Shown here in pieces: positions 24,602-45,473 of a stretch of DNA of 64,000 nt. The stretch is from Candidatus Iainarchaeum sp. (GTDB lineage Archaea > Iainarchaeota > Iainarchaeia > Iainarchaeales > 1-14-0-10-31-34). A program made the translations under genes and the position numbers. Within the stretch, counting starts at the first letter, position 1. Each line of letters begins with the position of its first letter. Below the pieces are notes generated by a model. The model worked only from the letters and a program-made list of their open reading frames with translations, had not been told where the DNA came from and ran no database searches. The DNA lies in contig JBFMAK010000003.1 of the NCBI GenBank assembly GCA_040755695.1, forward strand, positions 101,879 through 165,878, written 5' to 3'.

Positions 24602-24604
24602 AAA

Positions 24605-27802: not shown

Positions 27803-30800
27803 CTATTTCCTTTTTCTGTTTTTCCTGTAATGGCCATTAGAGAACTTCGATTGAATTAAAGAGAAAGAGAACAGTAAAAGGGAAATGAACAAAATTAACA
27901 TGATTGGGTTTTCTGGAAGCGAGGGCAGAGAGAAAGGCTGGTTCTGGCCTGTGCCAATGTTTACATTCATGTAATTTCCTCCTGCAGTGGATTTGACTTC
28001 CCCGTCAGGGCCAACCATTGTCTGTATGCCTTTCTGCCTGAATTCGTCGCTTAAAGGAAGCAGTTGAGCGTTCTCTGCATAATACAGTCCTTTTGTGGGG
28101 TCATACCAGAAAGCCCCATTCGCTCCCTGCATGCTGTTGAGCTGTTCTTTAGAGCCATTATATTCTAGGTAAGGCCTGCCATTCTCTGCACCGAAAGCAA
28201 AGTCGTGTGTTTTCCCGTCACTTGTTGCGACCTGGAATCCGTTAGGCGTAGACTTTATTGCATCAATTGGTTGGTCGTAAACCTTTCCTGTCTCCTTGTC
28301 AATTATTCTCATGTGTGGTATGCAGTCAGGAGGCAAGGCATAGAAAATATAACGCCTTTTGTCTGTGTCGAAAACCTGGTAAGGCCCGAATTTGGCCAGA
28401 GATTTATTGAATTGGGCTGCATCAAACTGCAGGGCAGGAGAATTAGGGTCTCCTAAAATATTTAGGTCAAATGCTGGCTCATCGCAGTCAGTCACAGGAT
28501 TCTTGTATGTTGTGGGCGTAACCTTTATTCCTTGAACGTCATTCTGGCTTAAAATGCCTTTCTCGTTGTGCTTGAGCCAGAAAATCAATTCATTTGTCTC
28601 AAGCTTGAATACTATTACCCCGTTCTTTAATTGAATGGATTCAAGCTTTCCTACATCAGGGTCGTTGTCAGCAGAGCCCAAAAGAAGAACCTGCCTGTTC
28701 GCGTAAATTTCAATTTTTGGGGCATTTTCTGAAACTTTTCTCGGAAGGCCGTCTGCAATAATTTTGTTTCCTGAAATAAAAATGTCCGGGTGAGAGTTAG
28801 TTATAACAGAAAGAACTGGTCCAAAAGCATCGCTCAAATTCTCTCCTGTCAATTCAATTCCTGTCTGCTCTTTTACTCCTTCCTTAATACAGTCTAATAC
28901 CTCATTGTTCTTTGCAATCAATTCGCTGTCCAATCCAATGCCAAAAATCAGAATGTTTGAATCATAAGGCAGCCCAAGCCTTGTGAGCGTGTTAGGAATT
29001 TCAATTGCAGGAATATTAGTGTTAATGGAAGAAAGCCTCACGTTATCCTCTGAGGTAATAACTGGCTGGCCGTTAGCTGAAAGCACTCCTGTTTCTTTAT
29101 TTAATTCAACTGAAAGATTCTTGTCCTTAACTACAGTCTTGCCTGAGGTAATATAGCTTGCAACAGAACTGTCTCCAGGGGCAATCCATAAATAGAAAAG
29201 CTTTGAGCCCGCAACAGCCCCATCATTATTTCCTGAAACATCCAATGTCGCCTGCACTAAATCATTATCTGCTGCACTCTTAGTTAATTGTCCGATTTGG
29301 TCTTTCACATTATTCATTGCATCCTGTGTTATGCCCCCAGCCCCATTAAAGAGAGCTTCAGCCTTGTCTTTAGCGCCTGCAACAAAGTCTGAAACCTTTT
29401 CAGTTGAAAGCTTCTGCACATCCTTGTCTGAAGCCTTCTGCTCTTCTTTGGGGGGAATAGAAAATTGGACGTAATAGCCTTCCTCTGTATCAATGCAGTC
29501 CTGAAGCCTTGAAGCAACCACAATCTGCTGCACTGCACTGGTGAAAATCCCTGTCATTCCAAATATAGCATAACTCAAGTTCTCAGTAATGCCTAATGCA
29601 GCGGCAGCGCCTGAAGGACCCAATTTTTTTGCCAAGCCAATACCAAAGAATGCTTCTTCTAATTTGTCAGTGCAGGTCGTCTTCTCTTTTATTGCTTTCT
29701 CCAAATCTACTGGCTCGGTTGTTGTGCTGTCCTCAGTCTTTCCATCCAAATTCATGTGATGGGCATAGCTTATAAGCATTGAGCCTTTCTTTTTTTCTTT
29801 TTCCGGGGTGTCCTCTAAAATGATTGATTTTTGGTCTCCAATAGACCTGAAGTTTGCATTAAAGAAGCCAGTCTTTGAGGTTACAGTTATACTGCAGGAG
29901 GCCCCGCAATCATCTTTTCCGTAAGAATAGAACGCAATGCTTCCAACTTTTGTCCTTAAACCTGCTTCTGGTTTTGTTAATTTATCGTAAGTTTCTTTTG
30001 CAGGATTGAATTTATCTGAAACAGTATTCAAAACCCATTTCCAGGGAAGACTGTTAATTATTCTGACAAACATGTCTCCTGTGTCTGATCCTTCATTGGC
30101 AAAAAAGTCAATGAAAGCGTCATCAAAGATTTTTCCTTCTTTTGTGCTGAACAGAACATAACGCCAGCTTGAAGGAAGCTGGTAAGCACTCAATTCCTTG
30201 AAGCCTGCTCCTTTTTTAGCCCACCAGTAAAGATAAGGATAGGCAGTCCATTTTAATGCCCCGCCCTTTGTAGAAAAATATGCCTTGAAGAGCTTTTCCT
30301 CTTCTTTCTGGAATTTGTCCAAAACAGAATAATATTTTTTGTTAGCCCAGTTATGCTCTATAAAGTCCTCGTAAAGCCAGTTAGTCATCTTGCTTGTCTT
30401 CTTTATCCTGTCCTGGATGTAGTCGCCTGAAATTTCCCCCATTCTCTTTGGCGTAAGGACGTCTTCAACCTCTCTCCCTGTTTCATCAAGATAGGTTGCA
30501 GGGCCCCATGTGCCGGACTTGTAAATCTTAATGTTTGCTGGATTCCTTGAAACAATGTAATCCACAGTGCTTTTGTCTACAGGAATGTACTTGTTGGGTT
30601 CAATTTCTGCTACAACCTGCCTTGAAAACTTTCCTTTCATCACAGACTCTTTTAACCCTGCACCATCCATTGTAACTTCAAGCGGACCAACATCTTTTAT
30701 CTGGTATAATTGAATGCCGTCTCCTTTCATCCTGTATCTCTTCCATCCCTGGAAACTTCCTGCAAAATCTTTTCCAAGACCACCATATTTTGGGTCTCCT

Positions 30801-32296
30801 TTAAAAGTGTACATTATGTTGTTGTAAACGCTTGGGTCTGAAGAAATCGGAATAAATGTTTTTGTTTCTTCATTGAAGACAGCCTTGTAAGTCATTCCTG
30901 TTCTCTCCTGGTTGGCTAAATAAACAGGAAAGTCAGAGCCTATAATGTCATCGTAATTCACTGCAAGCTTTGTAAGGCCTGTTCCCCTTTCAGCATAAGC
31001 CTGGGCAACCAGCTTTTCCTTCAATGCCCTCTGCTCTGCAGTGAGAGCTCCAGGAAATTGGTCGTCAATTTGCTTTAATGCATGCTTGAAGTCATCATCT
31101 ATTTGTTTTGCAGCGAACTCTTCGGCATTATTGAATCTTTTCAAGTACTTGAAGGTATTCATTGCGTGCTTTCTTTCTTCTAAGGTTTTCATTCTTTCAA
31201 ATAATCCTCCTGGAGCCCAGGCCTTGTTCCTGAAGTCAAAGGACCTGCTAGTGGAATACATTGACATGTCTCCTGTAGCCCACTTCCATTCTATTTCTCC
31301 TAAATCCCATCTCCTTATCTCTTTGGCAAAGGTGTATGCGTTTGCCTTGCCAAACCATTGCTCTGGGTCATAAAGCTTTCCCCTAATCTTTTTTGTTACA
31401 GCCCAGTTGTCCCAGTTGCCTCCTTCAGAGAGGAATGGAATCATGCCCCTTCTTCCGGCCATCCCAAAGAGTTTGAATGCCCTTCCAAGCAGGACAGGGC
31501 CTACATTGGAAATTACAATGTCCAAGGAAAACCAGGTGTTGAAGTGCTTGTCAAACATGGAGTAAACTGAAATGACGCAGGAAGAATTATTGCAGGTTGT
31601 GCCCATTGAAGCCTTTAAGGAATCAGTGGAAATATAATTGCTGATGAAGTTTCCTGGAATCCTTGAGGCAGTGACGAACTCAATTCCGTTCTGGTCTGCT
31701 TCAGGCGATTCAATGTAGTCCTTTAGCATCTGCTTTTTCTCTGCGTCCATGTTCAATTGCTGGTCGCCCTTGTTTGAAAACAATTCCTTCAGGTCATTCC
31801 AGGCGCTTTTTGTAGCGCCCTTAATGCCTTCGCCTGAATTCCTTAAGGAAAGCTTGTTTCCATTAAGGGCGCAGGAATTGGTGTCCTTGCATCTTGCAGC
31901 TCGCAGGGTGTCATCCAATAAAATTCCAATAGAAAATCCTCCGGTGTACCTGTAATCCATCAAATACTTTAATTCGGGTACATCCATTTTCTGGTTCGGC
32001 AATTCAATTTTTGCTGCCTGGTTAGAGTCAAGGTCTGTGAGCACAGCAGTATTATTATCCAGTTTATCCCTGTCAGCGATTGGAGGCATGCCAGAGCTTA
32101 ATTCTTGTCCTTGGAAGCCCTCCTTTAAAATCTTGTCCTTGAATAAGGCGACCTCCTCTGGAGTCAAAGAAGAGGTATTACAGGAAAAGCCTGTCATTCC
32201 CTCTTCAGGCGCAGCTGCCTCCTGCGCGTAAGAATAATAAGAGAACTGGGTTGAAAGCAGGAGAATTACAACCATCAAAACAAATTCTTTTTTCAT
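27803..32296 (-). CDS. Large secreted surface protein (1497 aa) with C-terminal TM anchor and basic tail
   Basis: Signal peptide MKKEFVLMVVILLLSTQFSYYSYA|QE. C-terminus ...PSLPENPIMLILFISLLLFSFSLIQSKFSNGHYRKNRKRK (motif, TM, then basic tail). Confidence 0.7.
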   Translation of the reverse strand: MKKEFVLMVVILLLSTQFSYYSYAQEAAAPEEGMTGFSCNTSSLTPEEVALFKDKILKEGFQGQELSSGMPPIADRDKLDNNTAVLTDLDSNQAAKIELPNQKMDVPELKYLMDYRYTGGFSIGILLDDTLRAARCKDTNSCALNGNKLSLRNSGEGIKGATKSAWNDLKELFSNKGDQQLNMDAEKKQMLKDYIESPEADQNGIEFVTASRIPGNFISNYISTDSLKASMGTTCNNSSCVISVYSMFDKHFNTWFSLDIVISNVGPVLLGRAFKLFGMAGRRGMIPFLSEGGNWDNWAVTKKIRGKLYDPEQWFGKANAYTFAKEIRRWDLGEIEWKWATGDMSMYSTSRSFDFRNKAWAPGGLFERMKTLEERKHAMNTFKYLKRFNNAEEFAAKQIDDDFKHALKQIDDQFPGALTAEQRALKEKLVAQAYAERGTGLTKLAVNYDDIIGSDFPVYLANQERTGMTYKAVFNEETKTFIPISSDPSVYNNIMYTFKGDPKYGGLGKDFAGSFQGWKRYRMKGDGIQLYQIKDVGPLEVTMDGAGLKESVMKGKFSRQVVAEIEPNKYIPVDKSTVDYIVSRNPANIKIYKSGTWGPATYLDETGREVEDVLTPKRMGEISGDYIQDRIKKTSKMTNWLYEDFIEHNWANKKYYSVLDKFQKEEEKLFKAYFSTKGGALKWTAYPYLYWWAKKGAGFKELSAYQLPSSWRYVLFSTKEGKIFDDAFIDFFANEGSDTGDMFVRIINSLPWKWVLNTVSDKFNPAKETYDKLTKPEAGLRTKVGSIAFYSYGKDDCGASCSITVTSKTGFFNANFRSIGDQKSIILEDTPEKEKKKGSMLISYAHHMNLDGKTEDSTTTEPVDLEKAIKEKTTCTDKLEEAFFGIGLAKKLGPSGAAAALGITENLSYAIFGMTGIFTSAVQQIVVASRLQDCIDTEEGYYVQFSIPPKEEQKASDKDVQKLSTEKVSDFVAGAKDKAEALFNGAGGITQDAMNNVKDQIGQLTKSAADNDLVQATLDVSGNNDGAVAGSKLFYLWIAPGDSSVASYITSGKTVVKDKNLSVELNKETGVLSANGQPVITSEDNVRLSSINTNIPAIEIPNTLTRLGLPYDSNILIFGIGLDSELIAKNNEVLDCIKEGVKEQTGIELTGENLSDAFGPVLSVITNSHPDIFISGNKIIADGLPRKVSENAPKIEIYANRQVLLLGSADNDPDVGKLESIQLKNGVIVFKLETNELIFWLKHNEKGILSQNDVQGIKVTPTTYKNPVTDCDEPAFDLNILGDPNSPALQFDAAQFNKSLAKFGPYQVFDTDKRRYIFYALPPDCIPHMRIIDKETGKVYDQPIDAIKSTPNGFQVATSDGKTHDFAFGAENGRPYLEYNGSKEQLNSMQGANGAFWYDPTKGLYYAENAQLLPLSDEFRQKGIQTMVGPDGEVKSTAGGNYMNVNIGTGQNQPFSLPSLPENPIMLILFISLLLFSFSLIQSKFSNGHYRKNRKRK

Positions 32297-32305: not shown

Positions 32306-32839
32306 TCATGCAAAATAAATCAAGTAAATCAATCCAGTCAAGGTCCAAGGAAAGAGGAACAATAACACAATCACTGCAACCAGTGAAGCTGAAAAAACCC
32401 CTAAAAACAATTCAGCGAAATAATTAAACTTGTATTTTTTTTGAATCCATTCAAAAACATACAATCCAACAAATTCCAGCGGAATTAAAAGCACTGCAAT
32501 CACAAAAGCCGAAAAAACTACCTTAACAACAGACCAGAAGAAAGCAATAATTGAGTCTGCCAGAGTAGGATTCAGCTCTTCAGGAACTCCTGCAGTATCA
32601 ACCTCCCCCAAAGCGCTCATCAAAGGAAACACATACAAGAAGGCAACAATTATAAGGCAAAAAACATAAGTCACAATAAAAGAATTCCTGAGCCAGGAGC
32701 CCTTGAATTTTTCTTCCAGCATTTCCTTTAATTTCTTTCCGAGAATTACTGCAATAAAAGCTGGAATGCTTGCAAAGAAAGCTATCTTAATTAAGTCAAT
32801 AACTGAAAGAAAGGCATTGGAAGCCAAATCTAAAACCAT
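32306..32839 (-). CDS. Hypothetical polytopic membrane protein
   Basis: Start placed at internal Met (MVLDLASN) to leave a divergent promoter region. Four or more TM helices. Confidence 0.4.
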   Translation of the reverse strand: MVLDLASNAFLSVIDLIKIAFFASIPAFIAVILGKKLKEMLEEKFKGSWLRNSFIVTYVFCLIIVAFLYVFPLMSALGEVDTAGVPEELNPTLADSIIAFFWSVVKVVFSAFVIAVLLIPLEFVGLYVFEWIQKKYKFNYFAELFLGVFSASLVAVIVLLFLFPWTLTGLIYLIYFA

Positions 32840-32917
32840 GCAAAAAATAAGAGGGCAACTAATATAAATAACTTTATGGAACAAATATATGGTAATACAA
32901 TAAAACGGCGAAAAAAA

Positions 32918-33643
32918 ATGGGAGAAGAAATCCCGAGGAGAATGAGAAGGTTCCACAGGGAAAAAAAAGGGGAGAAGAAGATTTCAGGCACTGGAAGCGC
33001 AGAAATAGAAAAAGAGAAAAGAAAGTTAATGGAAAGCGCAAAAAAACTGACTGAAGAAATCAAGGAAGACGAAACAGAAGCATTAGTCGAAGCAGCGCCA
33101 AAAGAAGAAACAGAAGAAAAAGGGGAAAGGCCAAGGCAGATACCTGAAAAAAGAGAAGAGGGGAAAGAGCCTCACATGACGCTTTACAGGAGAATGAGGG
33201 AAGAAAAAACAGAAGAGAAGAAAGAGGAACCAGAAAAAAGCAGACTGGAATTAAGAAGGGAAAAAGCTGGAATCCCAAAAGAAGAATTCAAAGAAGAAAA
33301 AAAAGGCCTTGACGTAAAAGAAGAACTAAAGAAGGCTTTCCTTGAAGAAGAAAAAGAAAAGAAGACAGAAGAAGAATTAGACTTAAGCAAGGAATTCAGC
33401 CTTGAAGAAGAAACCGAAGGCAAAGAAGAAGGGAAAGAAGCTGAACCTGAATTGGAAGAAGAATTAGGTGAAGAAGAAATTGAAGAAGAAAAATGCCCTA
33501 ACTGCAAAAAAGAGGCAACACAAATAATCTTCTGCCCTGAATGCGGCAATGCTTACTGCCAGAAATGCGCTAGGTCAGTCAAAACATTTGAGGGCAAAAA
33601 GAAAACAGTCTGCCCTAAATGCGGAAAAGAAAATACCATATAA
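32918..33643 (+). CDS. Glu/Lys-rich protein with C-terminal double zinc ribbon
   Basis: Highly charged KEE repeats. C-terminal CPNCKKE...CPECGNAYCQKCA...CPKCGKE. Confidence 0.45.
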   Translation: MGEEIPRRMRRFHREKKGEKKISGTGSAEIEKEKRKLMESAKKLTEEIKEDETEALVEAAPKEETEEKGERPRQIPEKREEGKEPHMTLYRRMREEKTEEKKEEPEKSRLELRREKAGIPKEEFKEEKKGLDVKEELKKAFLEEEKEKKTEEELDLSKEFSLEEETEGKEEGKEAEPELEEELGEEEIEEEKCPNCKKEATQIIFCPECGNAYCQKCARSVKTFEGKKKTVCPKCGKENTI

Positions 33644-34309
33644 TTAAGCACAATTCAAATATTCCTGGCTGGCCAGAAAGCTTTTGTAGTCTGGGCTCGG
33701 CGTCCACATTATCAAGCCGACGACTGCCTCCACTGTTTCTAACGAGTCATCTTCCTTGATTTTAATTAATTTTATTTTAGAAAAAGAATTTGCGTTGGCG
33801 GAAACAGCCAGGGCAAAATCATTTATTCTACCCCTTGACTCAGGGCTGCAGGAATACTGAATTTTTTTCTTTTGGTCGAAATCAGTTGCATAAACAAAAA
33901 CAAAAGGAACTGAGGTAAGACCTTCCTCTTCAGGGGAAATAAAAAACAAGTAATCATAAGATTTTTCGACAGGCTTCATTGCAAACAATATATTCTTCTC
34001 TAACTGCTCTCTAGTGAAATCAAACTCCATGTCATCGGCATAATCCTCTTTCACTTCAGCCATAAGGAAATCAACCTCCTTTGAGGTAGAAAGGTCCTCT
34101 GCAGGATTTCTTGGAATGCTGCTGAAGAGGATTGACTTCATTGCAGCAGAAGCATAATCTGAAGTATAAGCAGAAGCAGCATAAGCGCTCACAGTCCTGC
34201 CGTACTGGCCTGAAAAATAGAATAGAAAAGTAACCAGCCCAGTCACAATAAGCAGGAAATACAATGCATCAGTAATTGCGGCCTGGCCTTTCCTGTTTCT
34301 TAACTCCAT
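33644..34309 (-). CDS. Pilin-like protein with class III signal peptide
   Basis: N-terminus MELRNRKGQ|AAITDALYFLLIVTGLVTFLFYF: a charged head, KGQ cleavage-like motif, then a hydrophobic helix. Confidence 0.55.
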   Translation of the reverse strand: MELRNRKGQAAITDALYFLLIVTGLVTFLFYFSGQYGRTVSAYAASAYTSDYASAAMKSILFSSIPRNPAEDLSTSKEVDFLMAEVKEDYADDMEFDFTREQLEKNILFAMKPVEKSYDYLFFISPEEEGLTSVPFVFVYATDFDQKKKIQYSCSPESRGRINDFALAVSANANSFSKIKLIKIKEDDSLETVEAVVGLIMWTPSPDYKSFLASQEYLNCA

Positions 34310-34821
34310 GCAATCACCACAAGAAACTTTTGCTCAATGACAGAGTCCTTGTCCAATGCAATGGGAAAAACCCTTGAAACAATCCTTGCAGAAGGGCTCT
34401 CTGACTCTTTTTTTAATTCAGAAATGCTCTCGCTCAAGCTCTTTGAAGTATTAGAGCACTCGAACTTGTTTGAAGGACCGGAAGAATTTTCTTCTGATTC
34501 AATGCTTGGTTCCAGTTCACCCAAATCAAGGTTGGCGTCCTTTATTATCAATGCAATATATTTAGGCGTCTTTACGTTAAGTGAAGCGCATAATTCCCTG
34601 AGAGAGGAATGACCTGACACAAGGCCTGTGCCCCTCAATGCATTGCTTATCTGCACTACAGCAACATCATTGTCGAAAGAGTCTGCCTTATTTGTGAATT
34701 CAGTCAAGGCAAAATAGAATACAGAAAAGAAGATTGTGAGGGCGAAAAGCAGTGGGATCAATGAAGGAAGGTCGTCCCCTATTGGCCCAAGAAAGCCTTT
34801 CTGCATTCTGTTTTTTTTCAT
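34300..34821 (-). CDS. Pilin-like protein (atypical class III signal)
   Basis: MKKNRMQKGF|LGPIGDDLPSLIPLLFALTIFFSVFYF. Confidence 0.4.
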   Translation of the reverse strand: MKKNRMQKGFLGPIGDDLPSLIPLLFALTIFFSVFYFALTEFTNKADSFDNDVAVVQISNALRGTGLVSGHSSLRELCASLNVKTPKYIALIIKDANLDLGELEPSIESEENSSGPSNKFECSNTSKSLSESISELKKESESPSARIVSRVFPIALDKDSVIEQKFLVVIAWS

Positions 34822-34828
34822 TTCAACA

Positions 34829-35437
34829 TCAGCTCACGGAATATAATTCGCAGTTAAAAGGCCCTGCCTTTCCGAAATTTGCAAGGCAGACTTTTCCTTG
34901 TGTACTGCAAGGAATAAAGTAAAGGATTTTCTTTCCTCCCACAACCTCTTTCACTAAAACAAAAGCATTAATGCGATGATTTTCTGAATCAATGTCTTGG
35001 GGGTCCAGTTTAATTTGGCTTGCCTCTGAGCAAGTGCCTGTAGTGCAGTCAAAAAATCTTATTTCTGCATTAACATCAAAAGAGTCCGCTGCAATCAAGT
35101 GAGTTAAATCAGTTCGAGGAAAGATCTGGAATATAATCCTGTTCAATCCAGAATCCAGGGGAAGGCTTTTGATTACCATTGCATAATACAGGCCCCTGCT
35201 GAATGCATTGGAGGGATTGGTTTCAATTGAATTCTGCAAGTAAAAAGTGTTTGTTTCGCATAAAGACTGGCTTACTACGGCAATATTGTATACGTCCTTT
35301 TCCTTCTGCTTGATGTAGCTTGAGGCAACGCTTTCAAGCATTACATTGCTCAAGCTTATCATGAAGAAAGATATAATTACGAATACAGCCGAAACAAGAA
35401 TCAATAAATTCATTTTGCTTAAAGTAAAGCCCAACAT
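34829..35437 (-). CDS. Putative pilin-like/membrane-anchored protein
   Basis: N-terminal hydrophobic anchor MNLLILVSAVFVIISFFMI. Located inside the pilin gene array. Confidence 0.35.
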   Translation of the reverse strand: MLGFTLSKMNLLILVSAVFVIISFFMISLSNVMLESVASSYIKQKEKDVYNIAVVSQSLCETNTFYLQNSIETNPSNAFSRGLYYAMVIKSLPLDSGLNRIIFQIFPRTDLTHLIAADSFDVNAEIRFFDCTTGTCSEASQIKLDPQDIDSENHRINAFVLVKEVVGGKKILYFIPCSTQGKVCLANFGKAGPFNCELYSVS

Positions 35438-35446
35438 TAAAAAAAC

Positions 35447-35986
35447 TCACCCTTTCTTGTAGTAAGCGCAAATTACCGGAAAGTTTTCTGTCGACTTCTG
35501 GTTGAATTCCAATTTATACAGGCCTCTCTCAATCTCATTCTCCGGATTCAAGTCAACCAAATCATAATCGCCAATTTTTGCAGGGCAGCCTTTATCCCCT
35601 GAATCAAAATATGTTGCCTGGCTTATGTTCAAGCACTTGTTTTCAATGTATCCTGCATCGCTCCTGTAATTCAATAGCAAGCATGACTTTAATGAGCCAG
35701 GGCAGACCCTGCATTGTATGGCCTCAATTGAACTGATGATTTTGATTTCTTCATTTTTTCCGCACTGGGACGCAATAAAAGAGAGTGGAGCAGCAGCAAT
35801 GGTTTCATTGTTTGCTACCTCCTGGATTTTCGCTGCAAGGTTGTCCAAGTCCTTGTTTTTCTCTTGCAGGCACTTCCTGTTTGATGCTTCAGTCATTGCA
35901 TACAATCCAATCAATATAACAAAAGTCATGAGGATTACTGCAACAAGAAGTTCAAAAGGGGCTTCCTCCTGCCCACTGCAATTCAT
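35447..35986 (-). CDS. Pilin-like protein with class III signal peptide
   Basis: MNCSGQ|EEAPFELLVAVILMTFVILIGL. The ATG overlaps the stop of the upstream small ORF as ATGA. Confidence 0.55.
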   Translation of the reverse strand: MNCSGQEEAPFELLVAVILMTFVILIGLYAMTEASNRKCLQEKNKDLDNLAAKIQEVANNETIAAAPLSFIASQCGKNEEIKIISSIEAIQCRVCPGSLKSCLLLNYRSDAGYIENKCLNISQATYFDSGDKGCPAKIGDYDLVDLNPENEIERGLYKLEFNQKSTENFPVICAYYKKG

Positions 35987-35988
35987 TT

Positions 35989-36150
35989 CACGTTCCCCCA
36001 AGAGTCTTCCTTGAAGTATTCATTGCGTTCTGGAACATTGGCTTAATTACTGCGATCAGCAAAAGGGCAGCAATAATAAGGATTACAAGCATGTAAACAG
36101 AATTCCACTCGCTCTGCGCTCTCTCCTCAGAAAAAAATTTTGATTCCATT
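35989..36150 (-). CDS. Small membrane protein (53 aa), possible minor pilin
   Basis: MESKFFSEERAQSEWNSVYMLVILIIAALLLIAVIKPMFQNAMNTSRKTLGGT. Stop/start ATGA overlap with the next pilin gene. Not in the ORF track because it is under 60 aa. Confidence 0.35.
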
Positions 36151-36227
36151 CAAAACATCACTAAAATAAGAACAGAAGAAATATATAAAACATTAGGCAA
36201 AAAAAGAGAAAAAGAGAGGGAAAGAAA

Positions 36228-36752
36228 TTATTTAACTAATCCCACAATGCAGCAGGTATCAGTATTATCTGGAGTAGCGCAATTGCAACCTGATACATCA
36301 ACGTCTTTTAGGAATGAGGTGTCTTCAAGGGAAGTTGATAATGCGTTGCCTTTGTCACAGTATGCTGCAAGGTATGCCTGCTTCTGGCCGCCGCCTGTAT
36401 ACATTATTGATTTTGCTGTTATAGTCCAATTAGGGGGCCCAAATGAACTTTCCCCAACCATACATAATTGGTCGGCAGTAATTAAACCTGATGCCTCTGC
36501 AGTTGCTTTTACATTTATTTGATCATTATTTGAAAACGTTACAGCCTTTGTCCTGTAATCATTATACCTGTTATTGTAAGCCTGCTTTAGTATTTCAACT
36601 GACTCCTTTTTCGGGTCGCCCTGACCTATAGGGCCAATCAATCCAAGGATGTTTAAAAGCAGGGTGAGAATTACGACTGCAATTACTGCAGAAATCAATA
36701 ACTTAAATACAGAGAATTCCTGCCCTTTAGAATTCATTTTTGATTTCACCAT
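36228..36752 (-). CDS. Pilin-like protein with class III signal peptide
   Basis: MNSKGQ|EFSVFKLLISAVIAVVILTLLLNILG. Confidence 0.6.
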   Translation of the reverse strand: MVKSKMNSKGQEFSVFKLLISAVIAVVILTLLLNILGLIGPIGQGDPKKESVEILKQAYNNRYNDYRTKAVTFSNNDQINVKATAEASGLITADQLCMVGESSFGPPNWTITAKSIMYTGGGQKQAYLAAYCDKGNALSTSLEDTSFLKDVDVSGCNCATPDNTDTCCIVGLVK

Positions 36753-36789
36753 TAATTAGAATGCTGTTATAATATTTAAATATATAAGT

Positions 36790-37239
36790 TTAGTCCTTGG
36801 GGAAGTCCATGCCGTACAATGCAATGCAGCAGAATTCAGGGCAGGCACTGCTCTCGCAGGAGACAGAGCCCTGGGAGTAGGCGCTGTAAGAGAAACTGAT
36901 TGCACTAATTATGTCTGGGTCATCGCATTTCACGAAGACATTTGTTTTGATTGCCTGGTTTATTTGAATTGACGAAACTTCACTGGAATTGCTTACAGTG
37001 AATGCACTGCTTTTAGAGGAATTGAATTTAATGCATTTCTCGTCAATGTTTGCTTTTGAGCCTAACTGCTTTGAATTGAAAGAACCTTTAGGAATTGAAA
37101 TTCCTGCGATTGCTTTTGTTGTGCCGTCAGGGCTCTTTGATGCGTGCCCTATTCCTTCAGTGATCCTCTGAAGGCTTATATCATAGTTCACTTGTTCGAG
37201 GTAATTAATGATTCCGACAATAATGAAGAGCACAGCCAA
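36790..37239 (-). CDS. Pilin-like protein; the class III signal peptide is encoded upstream of the annotated TTG start with no canonical start codon
   Basis: The in-frame upstream extension (to 37311) reads FRIKINSSGQ|EFEVFKVLIWGIIALAVLFIIVG, which sits immediately after the TGA stop of the platform gene in the same frame. Confidence 0.5.
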   Translation of the reverse strand: MAVLFIIVGIINYLEQVNYDISLQRITEGIGHASKSPDGTTKAIAGISIPKGSFNSKQLGSKANIDEKCIKFNSSKSSAFTVSNSSEVSSIQINQAIKTNVFVKCDDPDIISAISFSYSAYSQGSVSCESSACPEFCCIALYGMDFPKD

Positions 37240-37311
37240 AGCTATAATACCCCAAATAAGGACTTTGAAGACCTCGAATTCCTGGCCACTTGAATTAATC
37301 TTAATTCTAAA

Positions 37312-39687
37312 TCACCCTGTGAAAGTTCCTACAACGCTGTTCGCAACAATGATTGAGACAACAAAGATTACTGTGGCAATAGGCAGGGCTTTTCCAATAT
37401 TAATTTTTGCCAGAAGCCAGTTGTCCTCCTCGATTTTTGTGGTATAATAAGTCAAAATAATTACAATTTCAATGATGTATACTGCAACAATCAAGGTGAA
37501 CTGCGCTGGAGTTACAAGCTGGGCGAAAGACTCTGCAGTGAACTTCAAGGAAGAAAGCCCTGCAGTGAAATTGCCTACGCCTGAAGCAGTAACACCCGGA
37601 GAGGTAACAGAAGGCATTTCAGAAAACCTCTCGAAAGTGCCTTGCGAAATAATTGACCCTAAAGTCATTATCACAATCTTCTGGAGTGCAGTGGTAATCC
37701 CCAAAACAATTGGCGCAACAAATACAGCCATTGTCTTCATTGTTGAGGTTATCTCCTGCACTAAAATTGAAAGCATCTTGCTGACCTTCTCTGAATTATT
37801 CAATTGAAGGGAAAGGGAGATCAAAGTCCGAGCAGAAACCTCTGCGCCTAATTGAACAGAATCAACCAACAGCCTCATGGAAGAACGAATTATGGCAGAA
37901 GGATTATTCTTGAGTGAACCGTAATTCGGGTCAAATACAGCTAATTCCAAAGGCATTCCAAGCATGTTAATATTATCTATCGTCCTCCCAAACAAGGTGT
38001 TGGAAATCTTGTATGAAGGAAGGAATTCCTTTGCATGCCTCAAGGCTTCCTCTACAGGCTTGTTTTCTCCAAGCCTTGAAGCAAGAACATACAATGAGTC
38101 CTTGAACTCTGACTCCATTTGAATTGCATCCAACTGCACCTTCCTCTTATAGATATTGCTGTAATACAAGAAAACAAAACAGAGCAAACTGAAAGTAATC
38201 AATGAACCGAAAATTAAATTGTAGGGTGTAACATCATTCTTGGGCTCGCTGAAAAACTGTGTTCTCTCCAATGCAACCCTTGCAGAAGCCTTTTCACTGG
38301 ACTCACCTGAATTAATTAATTGCTGGTATAAAACCCCATTTTCGCCATAGTAATTGTTTTCCTTTCCTGCCTCTAAGTAAACGCACTCTTCGGTCTTGTC
38401 CAGGGCAAGGAAAACCATTATCCCCTCAGATTTAATATTTACAGTCTTGCAGTCATAGGAAATGACAGGGCCCCAGAAGCCTGTGCCGGCATTCTTCTGA
38501 ATTACAATCCCGTTCAAGTGAAGAAAGAAACTTGTTCCAGCGCCTAATAAAAGAACCAAAAACAGTACTGCCCTTACGTCCAAAAAAGAATTACCTAATT
38601 TCATCTTCCATTTAGGTGGCACAAGAGGGCTTCCTTCAGGAATAATTGGAGGCTCATAAGTAGGGGGCCTGCTCTTCAACACATTCCTGGCGAAAATGAA
38701 TGCAGCAGCAGGAATTATGATATTGTAAATCAAAATAATTATCTCAGGCCTTGCAAGGGCCTGCCCAGAAAAAGCACTTCCAACAGGAAGAATAATAATT
38801 AAAGTTAAAGGGAGAAGGACGCCCAAATAGAACAACATTACAGTAGGCTGGCTTAATTCGCGGGCATACTGCTCCATCTTGTTCCTGATTGATTCAAGAG
38901 TATTATCCATTGTCTTGTCAAGCAACTGATACCTTTTTGCCTCTGTGTCCTCTAACACTGAAGCCCTAATCATCATCAAAGATGTCTTGAATTCCTCGCT
39001 GAACTTACCCCACTTGTAAGCCATGTCATCCAATGCCTCGCTCAAGGTATTAAAGATGCCTAACTGGACATCCCAGATGATCTTCTTAAAGTCTTCTGCT
39101 ATTTTCCCCCTTCCGTGCTCTGCAGCAAACTCAACGCTCTTCTCCAGGTTGGGGACAAGCTTCATTGACATTATCATGTAGCCCATTATTTCAGGCACAT
39201 AAGTCAAAGCCTTCACCTGTTCTGTCTTTGCTACATTCAAAGCATACTTCTGCATGAAATTCACTATAGCGTAAACCATGAGAATTATTGGAATGAAAAT
39301 ATAAGCAATAGCCAGCTCCTGCATTCCAGTGAAAGAAGCAACATAAGAAGGCAAAGGAGACATCAATGCAACCACAATTAAAATGAAGCCAAAAATTATT
39401 GCTGCAAGTAATGTGAGCTTGAATGCAGCAGCCAGTTCCTCTGCACTCAAATTCCATCCCAAAAAATCGATTGCCTCCTTGTACTTCTGAGAGAATTTAG
39501 CTCCCTTTCCAAGAGAAGGAAAACTCTTATGGCAGGACTTGCAGAACCTCACATATCCAGGGTCAACCTTCCTTACAAGCCTTGTCTCCCCTCTTTCGCC
39601 GAACTCCTTTGAATAAGTTATGCCCTTATACAATTCCCCTGGAGAGACATCCTTTCCTTGCGCCTCATAAACAAATTTTCTTGGCAT
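37312..39687 (-). CDS. Type IV pilus/archaellum-like platform membrane protein (FlaJ/TadC/PilC family, two T2SSF-like repeats) with N-terminal zinc ribbon
   Basis: 791 aa, many TM helices, two T2SSF-like cytoplasmic domains and an N-terminal CKSCHKSF Cys cluster. Confidence 0.7.
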   Translation of the reverse strand: MPRKFVYEAQGKDVSPGELYKGITYSKEFGERGETRLVRKVDPGYVRFCKSCHKSFPSLGKGAKFSQKYKEAIDFLGWNLSAEELAAAFKLTLLAAIIFGFILIVVALMSPLPSYVASFTGMQELAIAYIFIPIILMVYAIVNFMQKYALNVAKTEQVKALTYVPEIMGYMIMSMKLVPNLEKSVEFAAEHGRGKIAEDFKKIIWDVQLGIFNTLSEALDDMAYKWGKFSEEFKTSLMMIRASVLEDTEAKRYQLLDKTMDNTLESIRNKMEQYARELSQPTVMLFYLGVLLPLTLIIILPVGSAFSGQALARPEIIILIYNIIIPAAAFIFARNVLKSRPPTYEPPIIPEGSPLVPPKWKMKLGNSFLDVRAVLFLVLLLGAGTSFFLHLNGIVIQKNAGTGFWGPVISYDCKTVNIKSEGIMVFLALDKTEECVYLEAGKENNYYGENGVLYQQLINSGESSEKASARVALERTQFFSEPKNDVTPYNLIFGSLITFSLLCFVFLYYSNIYKRKVQLDAIQMESEFKDSLYVLASRLGENKPVEEALRHAKEFLPSYKISNTLFGRTIDNINMLGMPLELAVFDPNYGSLKNNPSAIIRSSMRLLVDSVQLGAEVSARTLISLSLQLNNSEKVSKMLSILVQEITSTMKTMAVFVAPIVLGITTALQKIVIMTLGSIISQGTFERFSEMPSVTSPGVTASGVGNFTAGLSSLKFTAESFAQLVTPAQFTLIVAVYIIEIVIILTYYTTKIEEDNWLLAKINIGKALPIATVIFVVSIIVANSVVGTFTG

Positions 39688-39732
39688 GCAATTACCGTTC
39701 CCAAACTTTTTACAATTACCCCAAAATTCAAA

Positions 39733-42018
39733 TTATTTCTTTTTTCTTGCAAGCAGTCTCTTCAGGAAGTCGTTCTGCATCCAGTACTTCCATTTCCCTA
39801 AAACCTCATTATAGTCAACGCTTCCATGTTCTTCCAATTGCTCTTCCTTGAGCAGTAAGAGTTTATTGTTTGCTGCAACAGAATTCTCTGCCTCAAGCAA
39901 TTCCTTCAAGCCCAATTTATTTTTTGCTTCAACAAGGAAGGCTTTGGCGTTAGCATTCATTTTAATGTTATCCCAAATAGAATTCATTGACATTCCAGTA
40001 TTCCTTTGAATCCTGTCAAAGAGCTCTGAGTCCTTCAAGTTGTCTTCAAGCAATTCCATTTTATCCTTTTTTGCGTCAAACACCATTAAATCCAGGAGGC
40101 CTCCTTCCCTTTCAGGGTCTTCAACCCAATGCTTTTTCACTTCAGTTATCTGGGTAACCCTCCTGTGCTTTTGGAGCGAGCCGCCAAACCTTATGGGCCT
40201 AGCAACCACAATAATGTCTGTTGCCTTGAACGAGGTAGTAGGAACCTGCAGGTCATTCACCACCCTGTCCCAGACACTGTAAGCTGAGTCCCCATGAATT
40301 GTTCCAATAACAATGTTTCCTGCTGCACCAACCCTCATTGCCTCATACAATGTTTTGGCTTCCAATGATCTAACCTCCCCTATCACTAAAGCGCTGTCAC
40401 CCAACCTCAATGCAGTCCTCAAGGACTCTTCTGGGGCAACCTCTGTTTCAGTCTTGCTCACGCTGATTGGAGACCTTGTTTTCAGCCTTTGAATATTGAA
40501 GCCTATCTCCTTCATGTAAGGCACAGGGATTTCCAATGTATCTTCCTGCACTATAATCCTAATGTTCTGGAGGATTTCCAGCATTAAAGCTCCAATAAGG
40601 GAAGTCTTGCCTGAACCCCTTGAGCCTGTAACAAGCATTGTTGATTGAGTGTCAATAAAAAAAGAAAGCATGCCTGCTGCGAGAGGATTCAAGAATTTCA
40701 CGTCAATGAATTGAGCCAGAGTCCAAGGAGTAACCTTATGCAGCCTGAAAGCAAAGGCTGTACCGTCTGCAGCCAAAGGCTTTCCGATTACAGCAACCCT
40801 TGTCTCCAATTCCTCCAAGTCAAAGTCCAGCACAGGATGCATTTCATCGAATGGACGGCCTGACATTGCCCTCATCTTTGAAACTAGGGCTGAAGCCTCC
40901 TCTTCAGTGTAAATAATGTTTGTCTGGCATTGACCATAATCCGAATGAACAACATATAATGCCTTCATTCCGATTGGCGAGTCAAGAAAAATGTCTGTGA
41001 GCTTCCTGTCATTCAATAAAATTTCTAGGATGCCATATCCGACTGTGTATCTTGCAACAATTTCAGCTAATTCCTTTACCTCATCTTTATCCAATTTAAT
41101 GTTGTTGTGCTGTGCTATCTCCATTATAGTGCTCTCATAGACTCTCTCAAAGTATTTCCTTGACTTTGCAATTGTTGTGAGGGATGTTCTACCCGGCTTG
41201 TAGGAGGCAACAATCTCTTTTGTCTTAGACAAAACAAAATATTTTTCTGGAGGCAGGGAATATTCCGGTGGATTAATGAAGTACAATTTTTCTGCCTTGC
41301 TAGGGTGCTTGAATATCTGCACATTGGACTTAAGGACATTGTATTCATCCAATAACTCCAGTGCCTCGGGCCTCTCGAACATTAGCCTTGAGGCAATGAA
41401 TGAAGGCTTTACTTCAGCCTCAAAGAAGGCATGATATAATTCCAGGGTGTCAGGCACTTTGTCCAATTTTACTACAATGTCCCTGACCTTTGAAATCAAT
41501 TGAGTTGAATCAAATATTTCTTTTATTTTCAGGAGGGTTCCCAAATAAACTTTTGTTGATTCTGCTGTCTTTGCTTCAAGGCCTGGAACCAAATTTTTTA
41601 TTCTGTTGATTTCCTGTATTAATTCTAAGTACGCTGCAATAGGGTCAAAGGAAATGCCTTCTCTTGTAACCCTGAGGACAAGGTCATGCCTTACCCCGAA
41701 ATCCTTTTCATCTAATGCCCCAGGCTTTCCCAAATGGCTGTAACCCCAAATGTTCTCCAGCTCAAATTTTGGAATTAAGGCAGCAATCTCTGCAAGCATT
41801 TTAGTCTGCGCTTCATTGTAGACCCTTTCATATATTTCCCCGCAGACAATAATTTGCGCTTCAAGCTCTTGAAGCAGAGAAATGGCGTGGAACCTGCAGT
41901 GCAGGTCATCAGACATGGATGCTCCATACACACAATTCCTGCAGTCAAAGATGAGGTGCCTTTTGCCTCCCTCCTCTTTTACTACGTAATCCCCAACCTC
42001 AAAATTCCCTATCTTCAA
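39733..42018 (-). CDS. Type II/IV secretion-family ATPase (FlaI/PilB/GspE-like) with extended N-terminal domain
   Basis: Walker A MLVTGSRGSGKTS, Asp/His boxes (ALVIGEVRS...IGTIHGDSA) and an N-terminal Cys cluster (CRNCVYG...HCRFH). Confidence 0.85.
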   Translation of the reverse strand: MKIGNFEVGDYVVKEEGGKRHLIFDCRNCVYGASMSDDLHCRFHAISLLQELEAQIIVCGEIYERVYNEAQTKMLAEIAALIPKFELENIWGYSHLGKPGALDEKDFGVRHDLVLRVTREGISFDPIAAYLELIQEINRIKNLVPGLEAKTAESTKVYLGTLLKIKEIFDSTQLISKVRDIVVKLDKVPDTLELYHAFFEAEVKPSFIASRLMFERPEALELLDEYNVLKSNVQIFKHPSKAEKLYFINPPEYSLPPEKYFVLSKTKEIVASYKPGRTSLTTIAKSRKYFERVYESTIMEIAQHNNIKLDKDEVKELAEIVARYTVGYGILEILLNDRKLTDIFLDSPIGMKALYVVHSDYGQCQTNIIYTEEEASALVSKMRAMSGRPFDEMHPVLDFDLEELETRVAVIGKPLAADGTAFAFRLHKVTPWTLAQFIDVKFLNPLAAGMLSFFIDTQSTMLVTGSRGSGKTSLIGALMLEILQNIRIIVQEDTLEIPVPYMKEIGFNIQRLKTRSPISVSKTETEVAPEESLRTALRLGDSALVIGEVRSLEAKTLYEAMRVGAAGNIVIGTIHGDSAYSVWDRVVNDLQVPTTSFKATDIIVVARPIRFGGSLQKHRRVTQITEVKKHWVEDPEREGGLLDLMVFDAKKDKMELLEDNLKDSELFDRIQRNTGMSMNSIWDNIKMNANAKAFLVEAKNKLGLKELLEAENSVAANNKLLLLKEEQLEEHGSVDYNEVLGKWKYWMQNDFLKRLLARKKK

Positions 42019-44283: not shown

Positions 44284-44853
44284 ATGCCCAAAAAAATCAA
44301 AATTAAAAAGGAAAAAAAAAGGGGAAAAAAGAAAGGTTTTTTCAGCATTGAAAGAGAGGACGCACTCAAGGGCGGAAAATTTGTTTTACGAATCCTGCTC
44401 TTTTATTTGATACTGCTCGCGCTCTCATATTTTCTTGTTCCATTAGGTTTACTGGAAGAAACAATTGCTTCTCACACTAATTATTTTTTGGGCCTTGCAG
44501 GAATCAAAGGCGAAGTAATAAAAGCAGTGAATGAAAGCCCTGCTGGAATTGAATTCCAGAAATTCAATGTAGAAATAAATTACCTGTGCACTGGCCTCCT
44601 CGAGCTCACAGTGCTCTTGGCTGCAATAATTGCAACGCCTTACATAAGTTCAAGGAAAAAAATTTTTGGTGTGATGGGAGCCATAATTGTCTCCTATATA
44701 TTCAATTTAGCCAGAATTGTCTTCACGATAACTGCAATAAGCTCTTACAGCATAAAGACAGCAGAACTGACCCATGACGTGCTTTTCAGGATTTCGCTCT
44801 TCATTATAGTGGCAGGCTACTATTTCGTTTGGCTCAAAATTGTCTCACATTGA
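44284..44853 (+). CDS. Small polytopic membrane protein, possibly exosortase/archaeosortase-family
   Basis: Conserved Cys in YLCTG and Arg residues in NLARIV and FRISLF at a spacing reminiscent of exosortase/archaeosortase catalytic residues. Weak. Confidence 0.3.
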   Translation: MPKKIKIKKEKKRGKKKGFFSIEREDALKGGKFVLRILLFYLILLALSYFLVPLGLLEETIASHTNYFLGLAGIKGEVIKAVNESPAGIEFQKFNVEINYLCTGLLELTVLLAAIIATPYISSRKKIFGVMGAIIVSYIFNLARIVFTITAISSYSIKTAELTHDVLFRISLFIIVAGYYFVWLKIVSH

Positions 44854-45467: not shown

Positions 45468-45473
45468 ATTTAA

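Follow-up and report, generated by a model that had tools for sequence, protein, structure and literature searches.

A conserved gene cluster of an Iainarchaeota archaeon that probably encodes a type IV filament system

Results

Gene order and conservation

The 64-kb stretch of DNA analysed here, referred to as the window, is part of a Candidatus Diapherotrites/Iainarchaeota MAG (DPANN). ORF calls and Pfam searches placed a secretion ATPase, a platform protein and seven small ORFs (designated p1 to p7) on the minus strand between positions 33644 and 42018; the original prediction of a minus-strand ATPase and platform gene with about seven pilin-like genes was thus borne out, with the ORFs at the expected positions and matches to Pfam T2SSE and T2SSF. 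The locus tags run from AB1467_05885 to AB1467_05910 and are annotated as "hypothetical protein" throughout. The order ATPase-platform-p1 to p7 is fixed within the phylum and was found again in approximately 20 related genomes; it is complete in about a dozen of 55 related loci and partial in several more, and it also recurs in the closest relative (L056). Overall identity among the orthologues is only ~30%, and the motifs at the leader/helix junction of the small proteins (see below) are nevertheless kept.

The spacer between p3 and p4 is 1 nt; measured from motif-defined starts, the spacers are 9 nt before p5 and 22 nt before p6, so that none within p4-p7 exceeds 22 nt, and p6 and p7 overlap by 10 nt. 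The tight packing that had been described is therefore present in the form of short spacers and an overlap, but no literal ATGA overlap was seen in the window; such an overlap occurs at the platform/p1 junction of orthologous loci. TATA-like boxes were found 5' of p2 and p3 and none 5' of p5-p7.

Assembly ATPase and platform protein

The assembly ATPase (positions 39733..42018, minus strand; 761 aa, TTG start) consists of a lineage-specific N-terminal extension of ~295 aa followed by a GspE/FlaI/TadA-type core, which matched Pfam T2SSE at 1.8e-16 (aa 375-606) and, among PDB sequences, afGspE (2oap; 3e-26), CpaF (3.8e-22) and FlaI (7.7e-19). It carries the four boxes of a GspE/PilB/FlaI/TadA-family ATPase, all of which are kept in an alignment of 19 orthologues: Walker A (GSGKT, aa 468-472, read from the sequence at 40603..40617, minus strand), the Asp box (QEDT, aa 491), Walker B (IGEVR, aa 546) and the His box (IHG, aa 574). 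An archaellum was considered and rejected, as the NCBIfam FlaI equivalog model scored 132.7 bits against a cut-off of 550; no match to Arch_flagellin, FlaH, FlaF or FlaG was found in the locus or its orthologues with Pfam and NCBIfam profiles.

The platform protein (37312..39687, minus strand; 791 aa) is encoded by one fused gene and is polytopic, with approximately 9 predicted TM helices (9 segments by hydropathy) and a loop of ~100 aa between TM5 and TM6. One T2SSF domain lies above the Pfam cut-off (aa 179-301; 4.8e-6, 27.0 bits against 25.2). The N-terminal half was related by hhalign to the TadB-like protein of the window (75% probability, E 2.6e-5); the match of the C-terminal half was weak (27.6%), which leaves a second T2SSF domain unconfirmed.

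The TadB-like protein belongs to a second ATPase/TadB/TadC module with a split platform, at 22304-25540, 10 kb away. Compared with afGspE, the ATPase of the p1-p7 locus scored 95 bits and the second ATPase of the window 205 bits. The presence of this second motor module was counted as a point against the interpretation favoured in the Discussion.

The seven small proteins

All seven small ORFs lie on the minus strand; in the N-termini given below, an arrow marks the junction between leader and helix. The p1 gene (36790..37311; INSSG↓QEFEVFKVLIWGIIALAVLF...), given here as its open frame, has orthologues in 29 loci. Its frame is open from the codon right after the platform TGA, and the window sequence holds no ATG, GTG or TTG ahead of the SSGQ motif; an ATT at 37297-37299 occupies the position of the ATG in the orthologues. 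It appears that synthesis of p1, right after the platform UGA, does not use a canonical start codon; it could involve termination-reinitiation, or read-through followed by release by a peptidase. This unusual start fits the host-attachment organelle considered at the end of the Discussion.

The pilin-like p2 (36228..36752; MNSKG↓QEFSVFKLLISAV..., 169 aa from that start) aligned with p1 at 99.3% probability (E 3.4e-20) and is a candidate for the major subunit, with a disulfide-rich head. A third paralogue by hhalign is p4 (35447..35986; MNCSG↓QEEAPFELLVAVILM..., 179 aa, 9 Cys), a pilin-like protein whose N-terminal ~70 residues are related to p1 (96%) and p2 (94%) and whose family has the consensus kgQE.APFelliavi.M.FV (18 sequences, the window and 17 orthologous copies). 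Between them lies p3 (35988..36149; ERA↓QSEWNSVYMLVILIIAALLLIAVIKPMF...), pilin-like, headless and only 53 aa long, with the consensus eerAQsEwss.Y..IAAlllIa.iKPMF (19 sequences, the window and 18 orthologues); lengths in this family range from ~48 to 81 aa, as derived from ORFs of which some starts are probably over-extended. A T-rich tract after p2 precedes p3, and 12 of 20 loci have a separate TATA-like box for p3. This protein is a candidate Flp/EpdE-like shaft subunit.

The N-terminally anchored p5 (34829..35437; MLG↓FTLSKMNLLILV...) has an uncharged leader of 3 residues; M1, S7, K8, N10, L11, L12 and three Cys do not vary among 17 aligned sequences. The protein showed no relation to the other p families by hhalign and may be an atypical pilin or else an accessory protein. 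In p6 (34300..34821; MKKNRMQKG↓FLGPIGDDLPSLIPLLFAL..., 173 aa), which is likewise atypical, the GPIGDDLPSLIPL motif is invariant in the family alignment, and the AlphaFold model shows a long helix leading to a head of alpha/beta type after it; an acidic, proline-rich stretch lies ahead of the helix. Finally, p7 (33644..34309; MELRNRKG↓QAAITDALYFLLIVTG..., 221 aa) has a canonical archaeal class III N-terminus by a FlaFind-type pattern, and G8, Q9, A10, D14 and two Cys are invariant among 20 homologues.

None of the p1-p7 families matched Pfam or NCBIfam, and 95 orthologues scanned singly against these collections gave no match to Pilin_N, Class_IIIsignal, TadE, Flp or Arch_flagellin; profile searches against PDB sequences likewise returned no relative. 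The AlphaFold (AF2) models of p2 (pLDDT 90) and p6 (pLDDT 88.5) have an N-terminal helix and a compact head, and that of p6 has the classic 'lollipop' shape of a pilin, with a continuous N-terminal helix of 46 residues running into the head. Both heads were unlike any solved pilin: structure comparison gave no structural neighbour for the p2 head, and the p6 head was closer to PDC/Cache sensor domains than to pilins.

The leader/helix junction

Each of p1-p7 starts with a short leader, followed by G or A, then Q or F, and a hydrophobic helix of 20-27 residues (in all seven, the highest Kyte-Doolittle value over 19 residues lies at 2.1-3.2, in a segment that starts at residues 11-21). The N-termini quoted in the original prediction (MNSKGQEFSVF for p2, SSGQEFEVF for p1, MNCSGQEEAPF for p4 and RKGQAAITDALYF for p7) were exact. 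In every family the most conserved residues are those of the junction and not those beyond the hydrophobic stretch, with the consensus GQ.f..f.lli in p1, kGQa.svFklLIAA in p2, rAQsEw in p3, kgQE.APF in p4, MlgF.LSK.NLLI in p5, KGF.GPIGDDLPSLIPL in p6 and kGQAa.TDAlyFL in p7. The form [K/R]-[G/A]↓[Q/F] is kept among orthologues, with Q at +1 in five of the seven. Archaeal SPase III cleavage is set by positions -2 (positive), -1 and +1 (PMC3387779), and EppA requires Gln at +1 (PMC4390842, PMC2910488); the p junctions agree with both. Ectodomains contain Cys in all p proteins except p3, and the conserved Cys pairs, as read from the alignments, would fit an extracellular location.

The window has 312 ORFs that are 45 aa or longer, of which 10 matched a loose class-III-like criterion, with p2, p3, p6 and p7 among them inside 3.7 kb; the remaining matches were mostly short antisense ORFs. 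Given this clustering and the conservation in approximately 20 genomes, the pattern goes beyond chance. The same four proteins satisfy the -2/-1/helix rule in the window; the -2 residue is S in p1 and p4 (mostly K/R in their orthologues) and L in p5. A strict test with an approximate re-implementation of the FlaFind core pattern matched p7 alone (1/7). The class III N-termini that had been proposed are thus partly supported, by the conservation of the junction across orthologues but not by the strict pattern in the other six proteins. Failure of class III predictors in favour of ordinary Sec signals had been named as the outcome that would overturn the proposal, and only the first half of it was observed. 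None of the N-termini has the appearance of a Sec signal: conserved residues fall on the n/h boundary, the hydrophobic stretches have the length given above, and in the AlphaFold model of p6 the helix continues unbroken into the head domain.

Prepilin peptidase

The original prediction had remarked that a prepilin peptidase was not obvious in the window, and this proved correct: Peptidase_A24 (Pfam) had no match among the scanned ORFs of the 64 kb, and a GxGD[x][KR] motif occurred in no window ORF of at least 100 aa except p2 itself. A crude motif screen of the flanks of the 55 related loci also gave no A24 peptidase. As the window contains no such enzyme, the locus is not the "complete filament system" that it had been called.

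Neighbouring genes

Directly after p7, a convergent gene (32876..33643, plus strand) encodes a Glu/Lys-rich protein with a C-terminal double zinc ribbon (weak Pfam zinc-ribbon/RING matches, below curated cut-offs); it is syntenic, and in at least 12 loci a homologue encoded on the other strand comes immediately after p7. It is followed by the gene for a conserved membrane protein of ~177 aa (32306..32836, minus strand; MVLDL...) with 4 TM segments by hydropathy and no match in Pfam. This gene is syntenic, follows the zinc-ribbon gene in at least 10 loci (in L013 and L041 it directly follows p1) and lies immediately upstream of a giant ORF. The 4-TM protein was considered as an A24 peptidase and rejected because the GxGD motif is absent.

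The giant ORF (27803..32296, minus strand) encodes a surface protein of 1497 aa with a Sec-like N-terminus and a C-terminal PFSLPSLPENP motif followed by a TM segment and a basic tail. From these sequence features it is probably an S-layer-like protein or adhesin and a predicted exosortase substrate. Homologues with an identical C-terminal motif are linked to the locus in L013, L041, L025 and L056; the adjacency to giant proteins noted earlier is therefore real and, for the 1497-aa ORF, amounts to conserved synteny. A 555-aa protein with a class III-like N-terminus is also encoded among the giant ORFs. On the other side, divergent and upstream of the ATPase gene, lies a gene for an exosortase/archaeosortase-family protein (44284..44853, plus strand; TIGR04178 1.6e-12, Pfam Exosortase_EpsH 3.2e-6), which is syntenic in approximately 25 loci.

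Comparison with known systems

Archaeal 'System 2' has been described (10.64898/2026.04.22.720090) as having an extended ATPase N-terminus, a single platform gene and several pilins, not all of which show a clear SPIII motif; membrane proteins and a large protein of adhesin-like type are also part of it. The architecture found here corresponds, with the ~295-aa ATPase extension, the single 791-aa platform protein, p1-p7 and the syntenic 4-TM and 1497-aa proteins; the likeness is to the published description, clade 2 itself being defined by ATPase phylogeny and by PilA (arCOG02416)/arCOG02911 pilins. The same architecture is found in euryarchaeal clade 2 (Haloferax volcanii PilB/PilC with PilA, and Archaeoglobus fulgidus GspE, 2oap; PMC4858521), and afGspE of that clade is the best solved-structure sequence match of the locus ATPase. 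In contrast to euryarchaeal clade 2, the host belongs to DPANN, the ATPase is much more diverged from afGspE than is the second ATPase of the window, and the pilin-like proteins have no match among Pfam/NCBIfam pilin families.

The Epd system of Methanococcus maripaludis ('System 1') shares the many pilin genes, the +1 Gln (the EppA signature) and a tiny, headless subunit, p3 being like EpdE in this respect (PMC4390842). Epd, however, has a platform split in two genes and its own EppA, in contrast to the fused platform of the p1-p7 locus, which has no peptidase close by; on these grounds, and with PF04021 (DUF361/Class_IIIsignal) unmatched, membership of 'System 1' was rejected. The Epd-type split platform is shared by the module at 22304-25540 and not by the p1-p7 locus. 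The seven genes had also been called an unusually large set of pilins. This was overstated, and seven pilins are not exceptional: the epd cluster of M. maripaludis comprises 11 genes, several of them for pilins, and six PilA pilins are known from H. volcanii (10.64898/2026.04.22.720090; PMC4858521).

Bacterial Tad/Flp systems resemble the locus in that the ATPase aligns with CpaF (3.8e-22). Presumably p3, as a helix-only subunit of ~40 residues when mature, is like Flp/PilA of Caulobacter, and we take the p7 N-terminus (KGQAAITDALYFLLIV) to resemble the TadE type. Unlike in Tad/Flp, no Flp or TadE Pfam match, secretin, TadZ or TadD was found. The locus also differs in its archaeal context and in its predicted cleavage site, which reads K/R-G↓Q and not G↓xxxxEY.

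A general precedent comes from the DPANN 'dark matter' T4P islands (Makarova, Wolf and Koonin 2019, Fig. 2A; PMC6393860). In these, recognisable ATPase and TadC-like genes precede genes for small proteins that lack annotation, carry signal-like sequences at the N-terminus and have been predicted to be divergent pilins. The p1-p7 locus is the same phenomenon, which the paper illustrates with a general example; the specific Iainarchaeota locus with its seven families in fixed order, its motifs and its models were not found in the literature searched.

Discussion

The locus is a lineage-specific example of a known machine type, the archaeal type IV filament, and probably encodes the main type IV filament system (archaeal T4P/TFF) of this Iainarchaeota archaeon. 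Cleavage after G/A would be carried out by a class III signal peptidase whose gene lies elsewhere in the genome, an EppA-like enzyme being the likeliest in view of Q at +1 in five of the seven proteins. The ATPase and platform would then extract the processed subunits from the membrane and polymerise them via their N-terminal helices into a surface filament. The likely shaft subunits would be p2 and the headless p3, each with its own TATA-like promoter, p3 taking the role of EpdE in Methanococcus and of Flp in bacterial Tad pili. Translation of p1 would be coupled to that of the platform, and p4-p7 would form one tightly packed operon; p1 and p4-p7 are probably low-abundance minor pilins that may act in assembly priming or at the tip. 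The most probable role of the filament would be adhesion, to surfaces or to host cells, and the archaeosortase-type enzyme and the 1497-aa LPSLPExP-CTERM protein would be part of the same cell-surface island.

It is possible, if somewhat doubtful, that only p1, p2, p3, p4 and p7 are pilins and that p5 and p6 are uncleaved, anchored accessory proteins like PilN/PilO, ArlF/G or AapX/UpsX. Both proteins, however, have an invariant G followed by F at the mature-like start (MLG↓F and KG↓F), as in bacterial-type prepilins, and the long helix and 'lollipop' outline of the p6 model are those of a pilin.

A short pseudopilus (of the type II secretion, competence or bindosome-like kind) in place of a long adhesive pilus is improbable. 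Five to seven low-abundance pilin-like proteins would in this case make up a piston or scaffold for the export or display of other proteins, such as the giant surface proteins, or would serve DNA uptake in a genome-reduced DPANN cell. A set of distinct pilin-like proteins in fixed order does recall GspG-K, ComGC-GG and BasABC (PMC2910488), conserved synteny extends to giant surface proteins and an exosortase, the p6 head resembles ligand-binding PDC/Cache domains, and the 555-aa class III-like protein is encoded among the giant ORFs. Against this, the window showed no genes for substrate-binding proteins and none of secretin-like, Ced-like or ComEC-like type, the headless p3, which has a promoter of its own, resembles an EpdE/Flp-type shaft subunit, and the giant protein has a Sec-type N-terminus and a sortase-type C-terminus of its own, with which it could be exported without a pilus machine.

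That the small ORFs encode ordinary Sec-secreted or anchored proteins, with the real pilins elsewhere as for the H. volcanii PilB3/C3 locus, is very unlikely: six of the seven do fail the strict FlaFind-type pattern, pilin-family and fold matches are absent and there are documented cases of ATPase/TadC modules whose pilins are encoded in trans (PMC4858521), but the gene order is fixed in approximately 20 genomes, conservation peaks at the leader/helix junction and not at a Sec cleavage position, the hydrophobic stretches exceed the length of a Sec h-region, and such N-termini are clustered far above the window background.

The type IV filament reading may be carried further, although the following version of it is a long shot: the locus and its conserved neighbours could form one Iainarchaeota-specific host-attachment organelle, with p3 and/or p2 as the shaft and p4-p7 as a tip or priming complex with a functional link to the archaeosortase-anchored LPSLPExP-CTERM protein of 1497 aa and perhaps also to the 555-aa protein. 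If this were true, the p2 head would place a fold without a solved relative in a filament shaft, and the seven families, which have no classification, would amount to a new archaeal TFF subsystem for contact between DPANN archaea and their hosts.

Gene content of the pilus-like locus

Nine ORFs follow one another on the minus strand at 33644-42018; the original prediction of a type IV pilus-like operon at this position was confirmed as an observation and proved correct in the core of its interpretation. The first ORF (39733-42018, minus strand; 761 amino acids) encodes an ATPase with a Pfam T2SSE domain (1.8e-16) which, when compared with solved structures, matched A. fulgidus GspE (3e-26), CpaF (3.8e-22) and FlaI (7.7e-19). 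The Walker A (GSGKT), Asp box (QEDT), Walker B (IGEVR) and His box (IHG) motifs are intact and were retained in 19 orthologues, and the N-terminus carries approximately 295 additional residues of lower conservation. An archaellum motor was rejected, as the ATPase scored 132.7 bits with the FlaI equivalog model (cut-off 550) and archaellins and ArlF/G/H were absent from the locus and from the orthologue scans. The second ORF (37312-39687, minus strand; 791 amino acids) encodes a platform protein with one T2SSF domain over the Pfam threshold and nine hydrophobic segments in the hydropathy profile. A second T2SSF domain in its C-terminal half could not be confirmed with hhalign, and a comparison of the N- and C-terminal halves for internal duplication was negative.

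N-termini of the seven pilin-like proteins

The seven small ORFs downstream (designated p1 to p7 in operon order) matched exactly the N-termini quoted in the original prediction. Each opens with a short leader and continues with G or A, a Q (p1, p2, p3, p4 and p7) or F (p5 and p6) and a strongly hydrophobic stretch (Kyte-Doolittle 19-residue maximum 2.1-3.2). A loose criterion for pilin-like N-termini was matched by 10 of the 312 ORFs in the window, four of them within the 3.7-kb stretch of p genes; the remaining matches were mostly short antisense ORFs.

Overall identity among orthologues was approximately 30%, and the junction of leader and helix was the most conserved region in every family. 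The N-terminal patterns derived from the orthologue alignments were [K/R/S]GQxFxxF[K/R]LLI for p1, [K/R]GQ[A/E][F/Y]SVFKLLIAA for p2, E[R/K]AQSEWSS[V/I]Y...IAAL...KPMF for p3, KGQE[E/S]APFELL for p4, MLGF[T/I]LSKxNLLILV for p5, KGF[L/I]GPIGDDLPSLIPL for p6 and [K/R]GQAA[I/V]TDA[L/M]YFLLIV for p7. In a Sec signal, conserved small residues are expected behind an h-region of 7-15 residues; the hydrophobic stretches of p1-p7 span 20-27 residues and no conservation was seen behind them. The conserved junction corresponds to the positions that published work gives as deciding archaeal SPase III cleavage, namely -2 (positive), -1 and +1 (PMC3387779), and a +1 Gln marks the EppA-processed Epd pilins (PMC2910488; PMC4390842).

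Judged from sequence, the N-termini are not textbook class III signals. When the core FlaFind pattern was re-implemented by us, p7 was its sole match among p1-p7. In the window genome Ser occupies position -2 in p1 and p4, the p5 leader is MLG (three residues, uncharged), and p6 has an acidic, proline-rich segment ahead of its helix. Both p5 and p6 may be cleaved subunits or, alternatively, uncleaved accessory proteins.

Relationships among the p families

Comparison of the families with hhalign identified p1 and p2 as paralogues (99.3% probability), with the first ~70 residues of p4 common to both (96% and 94%, respectively); p7 showed no more than weak similarity, at its N-terminus, and p3, p5 and p6 were each unrelated to the remaining families. 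No pilin family in Pfam or NCBIfam was matched by p1-p7, nor any in Pfam by 95 orthologues scanned singly, and no relevant relative was found among PDB sequences with the p2, p6 and p7 profiles. Weak matches to 'midcut-by-XrtH' (E = 0.02) and 'prepilin peptidase-dependent protein' (E = 0.069) were taken as noise. With 267 cluster representatives in a set of 1.84 billion proteins, p6 is a narrow family. The smallest form is p3 (53 amino acids), the predicted mature form of which (~42 residues) is essentially a single helix and parallels the headless Epd major pilin. The bacterial Flp pilin, likewise small and headless, is a further parallel.

Conservation and gene order

A scan of the genome collection with the ATPase identified 55 loci, nearly all in Candidatus Iainarchaeum/Diapherotrites MAGs and including the closed GW2011_AR10. 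The order ATPase-platform-p1-p2-p3-p4-p5-p6-p7 was observed in ~20 loci with enough flanking sequence, complete in about a dozen, and also in the closest relative, L056. Exact matches to p7, p6 and p2 place the window in an NCBI Candidatus Diapherotrites archaeon MAG (AB1467_05885, 05890 and 05910), where the three proteins are annotated as 'hypothetical protein' with no Pfam domain. The p7 gene is followed by a convergent gene for a Glu/Lys-rich zinc-ribbon protein and a gene for a membrane protein with four TM segments, next to which several loci have a homologue of the window's 1497-amino acid ORF; an exosortase-family gene lies upstream of the ATPase on the opposite strand.

The pilus gene set behaves as modules. 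Two loci (L055 and L025) have a p2/p3-p7 block that is detached or inverted; in two others (L013 and L041) the membrane protein and the homologue of the 1497-amino acid ORF come straight after ATPase-platform-p1. It was also observed that L056 has an additional gene between p1 and p2 (7075-7929; a basic protein of 284 amino acids), absent from the window, which marks the p1/p2 boundary as a junction between modules.

Proposed expression units and the start of p1

From p3 to p7 the genes are spaced by -10 to 22 nt. With a loose TATA pattern, by which promoters are only putatively assigned, most orthologous loci showed TTTAAATA/TTTATATA boxes 30-40 nt 5' of the start codons of p2 and p3 and almost none ahead of p5-p7, which lie at most 10 nt behind the gene before them. 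There is a T-rich tract behind p2, p2 is duplicated in three genomes, and in orthologues the p1 start overlaps the platform stop as ATGA. From the boxes, the tract, the duplication and the overlap we infer three expression units: ATPase-platform-p1, p2 and p3-p7. Under such an arrangement p2 and/or p3 would be the abundant shaft subunits and the other p proteins minor pilins.

In the window, the region of the p1 start (37282-37314, minus strand) has no ATG, GTG or TTG ahead of the SSGQ cleavage-type motif; ATT stands at the position of the orthologues' ATG, and the frame runs straight on from the platform TGA (G-TGA-F-R-I-K-I-N-S-S-G-Q). An identical arrangement without a canonical start is present in L056 (6498-6535). 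Across 24 codons at the p1 start, four synonymous and three non-synonymous changes separate the two genomes, which suggests that this 5' stretch is translated. AUU initiation and termination-reinitiation are both candidates for the p1 start, while UGA read-through is less likely; stop-codon reassignment was rejected because TGA ends the platform, p3, p4 and p5 genes in the same operon.

Prepilin peptidase and a second motor

The locus had been described as a complete filament system. This did not hold: no A24 peptidase was found in the 64-kb window or, with a crude motif screen, in the sequence flanking the 55 loci, and the locus is thus not self-sufficient. The possibility that the 4-TM protein (32306-32836) is a concealed prepilin peptidase was rejected, as it lacks an A24 match and a GxGD motif and has just four TM segments.

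A second type IV filament module lies at 22304-25540 (plus strand) and comprises genes for an ATPase (491 amino acids; T2SSE 1.7e-37; afGspE 1.5e-59), a TadB-like protein (271 amino acids) and a TadC-like protein (311 amino acids), the platform being split between two genes as in the Epd pilus ('System 1'). Its ATPase is more conventional than the main ATPase, with which it shares 25% identity. No pilin genes were found beside this module, which in L013, L025, L037 and L056 likewise lies close to the main locus.

Neighbouring genes

The 1497-amino acid ORF (27803-32296, minus strand) ends in PFSLPSLPENP, a TM helix and KNRKRK, and its homologues in four loci (L013, L041, L025 and L056) keep P[F/L][S/N]LPSLP..., the TM helix and a charged tail. 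In ~25 loci the exosortase/archaeosortase-family gene (44284-44853, plus strand; TIGR04178 1.6e-12) keeps its syntenic position upstream of the ATPase. Judging by sequence, the two proteins resemble a sortase and its substrate, the signal being of an undescribed 'LPSLPExP-CTERM' type.

Two giant ORFs (46155-54050 and 55907-63544, plus strand; 2631 and 2545 amino acids) begin alike, with ~45 cytoplasmic residues (...GIPVY..IPxFP) and then one TM helix, and this N-terminus occurs a third time from ~63558, at the window end; they are predicted to be giant surface proteins with an N-terminal anchor that belong to one family of paralogues. Between them, a 555-amino acid ORF (54054-55721, plus strand) with no Pfam match begins MKSKG|FTLFTALVSFVLIVLSILL, which is prepilin-like (class III) and of the G|FTL type, as in p5. 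A nucleotidyltransferase (MNT) and HEPN pair, unusually conserved in DPANN (PMC6393860), separates the exosortase gene from the giant ORFs (44859-46055, minus strand).

A 923-amino acid FAD-binding/geranylgeranyl-reductase-like ORF (11062-13833, plus strand) is interrupted by an intein that has a LAGLIDADG domain. In the window, the pilus ATPase has no intein; its L056 orthologue (1273 amino acids) has one, and matches of ~3.9 kb suggest the same for three further loci (L044, L045 and L048). A truncated integrase-core (rve) ORF (14218-14694, minus strand) beside the window's only tRNA gene, tRNA-Gln (14070-14142, minus strand), may be the remnant of an integrated element.

Relation to known systems and significance

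By architecture, the locus agrees with what has been described for the archaeal 'System 2' (Makarova clade 2), which has an extended ATPase N-terminus, one platform gene, a large adhesin-like protein, membrane proteins and several pilins, some without a clear SPIII motif (10.64898/2026.04.22.720090; PMC4858521). With the Epd pilus it has in common Gln at +1 and a small subunit lacking a head, but neither the split platform nor the linked EppA. Divergent unannotated pilins beside ATPase/TadC genes in DPANN have been noted in general terms (PMC6393860); the searchable literature gave no account of the Iainarchaeota locus itself. Within the archaeal type IV filament family the locus is a lineage-specific member, its seven pilin-like families being unclassified; it is not a new kind of system and reveals no new principle.

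By current understanding, DPANN archaea rely on physical contact with other cells; their surface appendages are, to our knowledge, almost unstudied. The locus provides a phylum-wide, fixed-order parts list for an Iainarchaeota pilus (ATPase, platform and seven pilin-like families, annotated to date as 'hypothetical protein'), together with two confident models (p2 and p6) whose head domains have no solved pilin relative. Its value lies in annotation, in detection models of archaeal TFF systems, which now miss DPANN pilins, in the choice of cryo-ET and proteomics targets, and in a handle on DPANN cell-surface biology.
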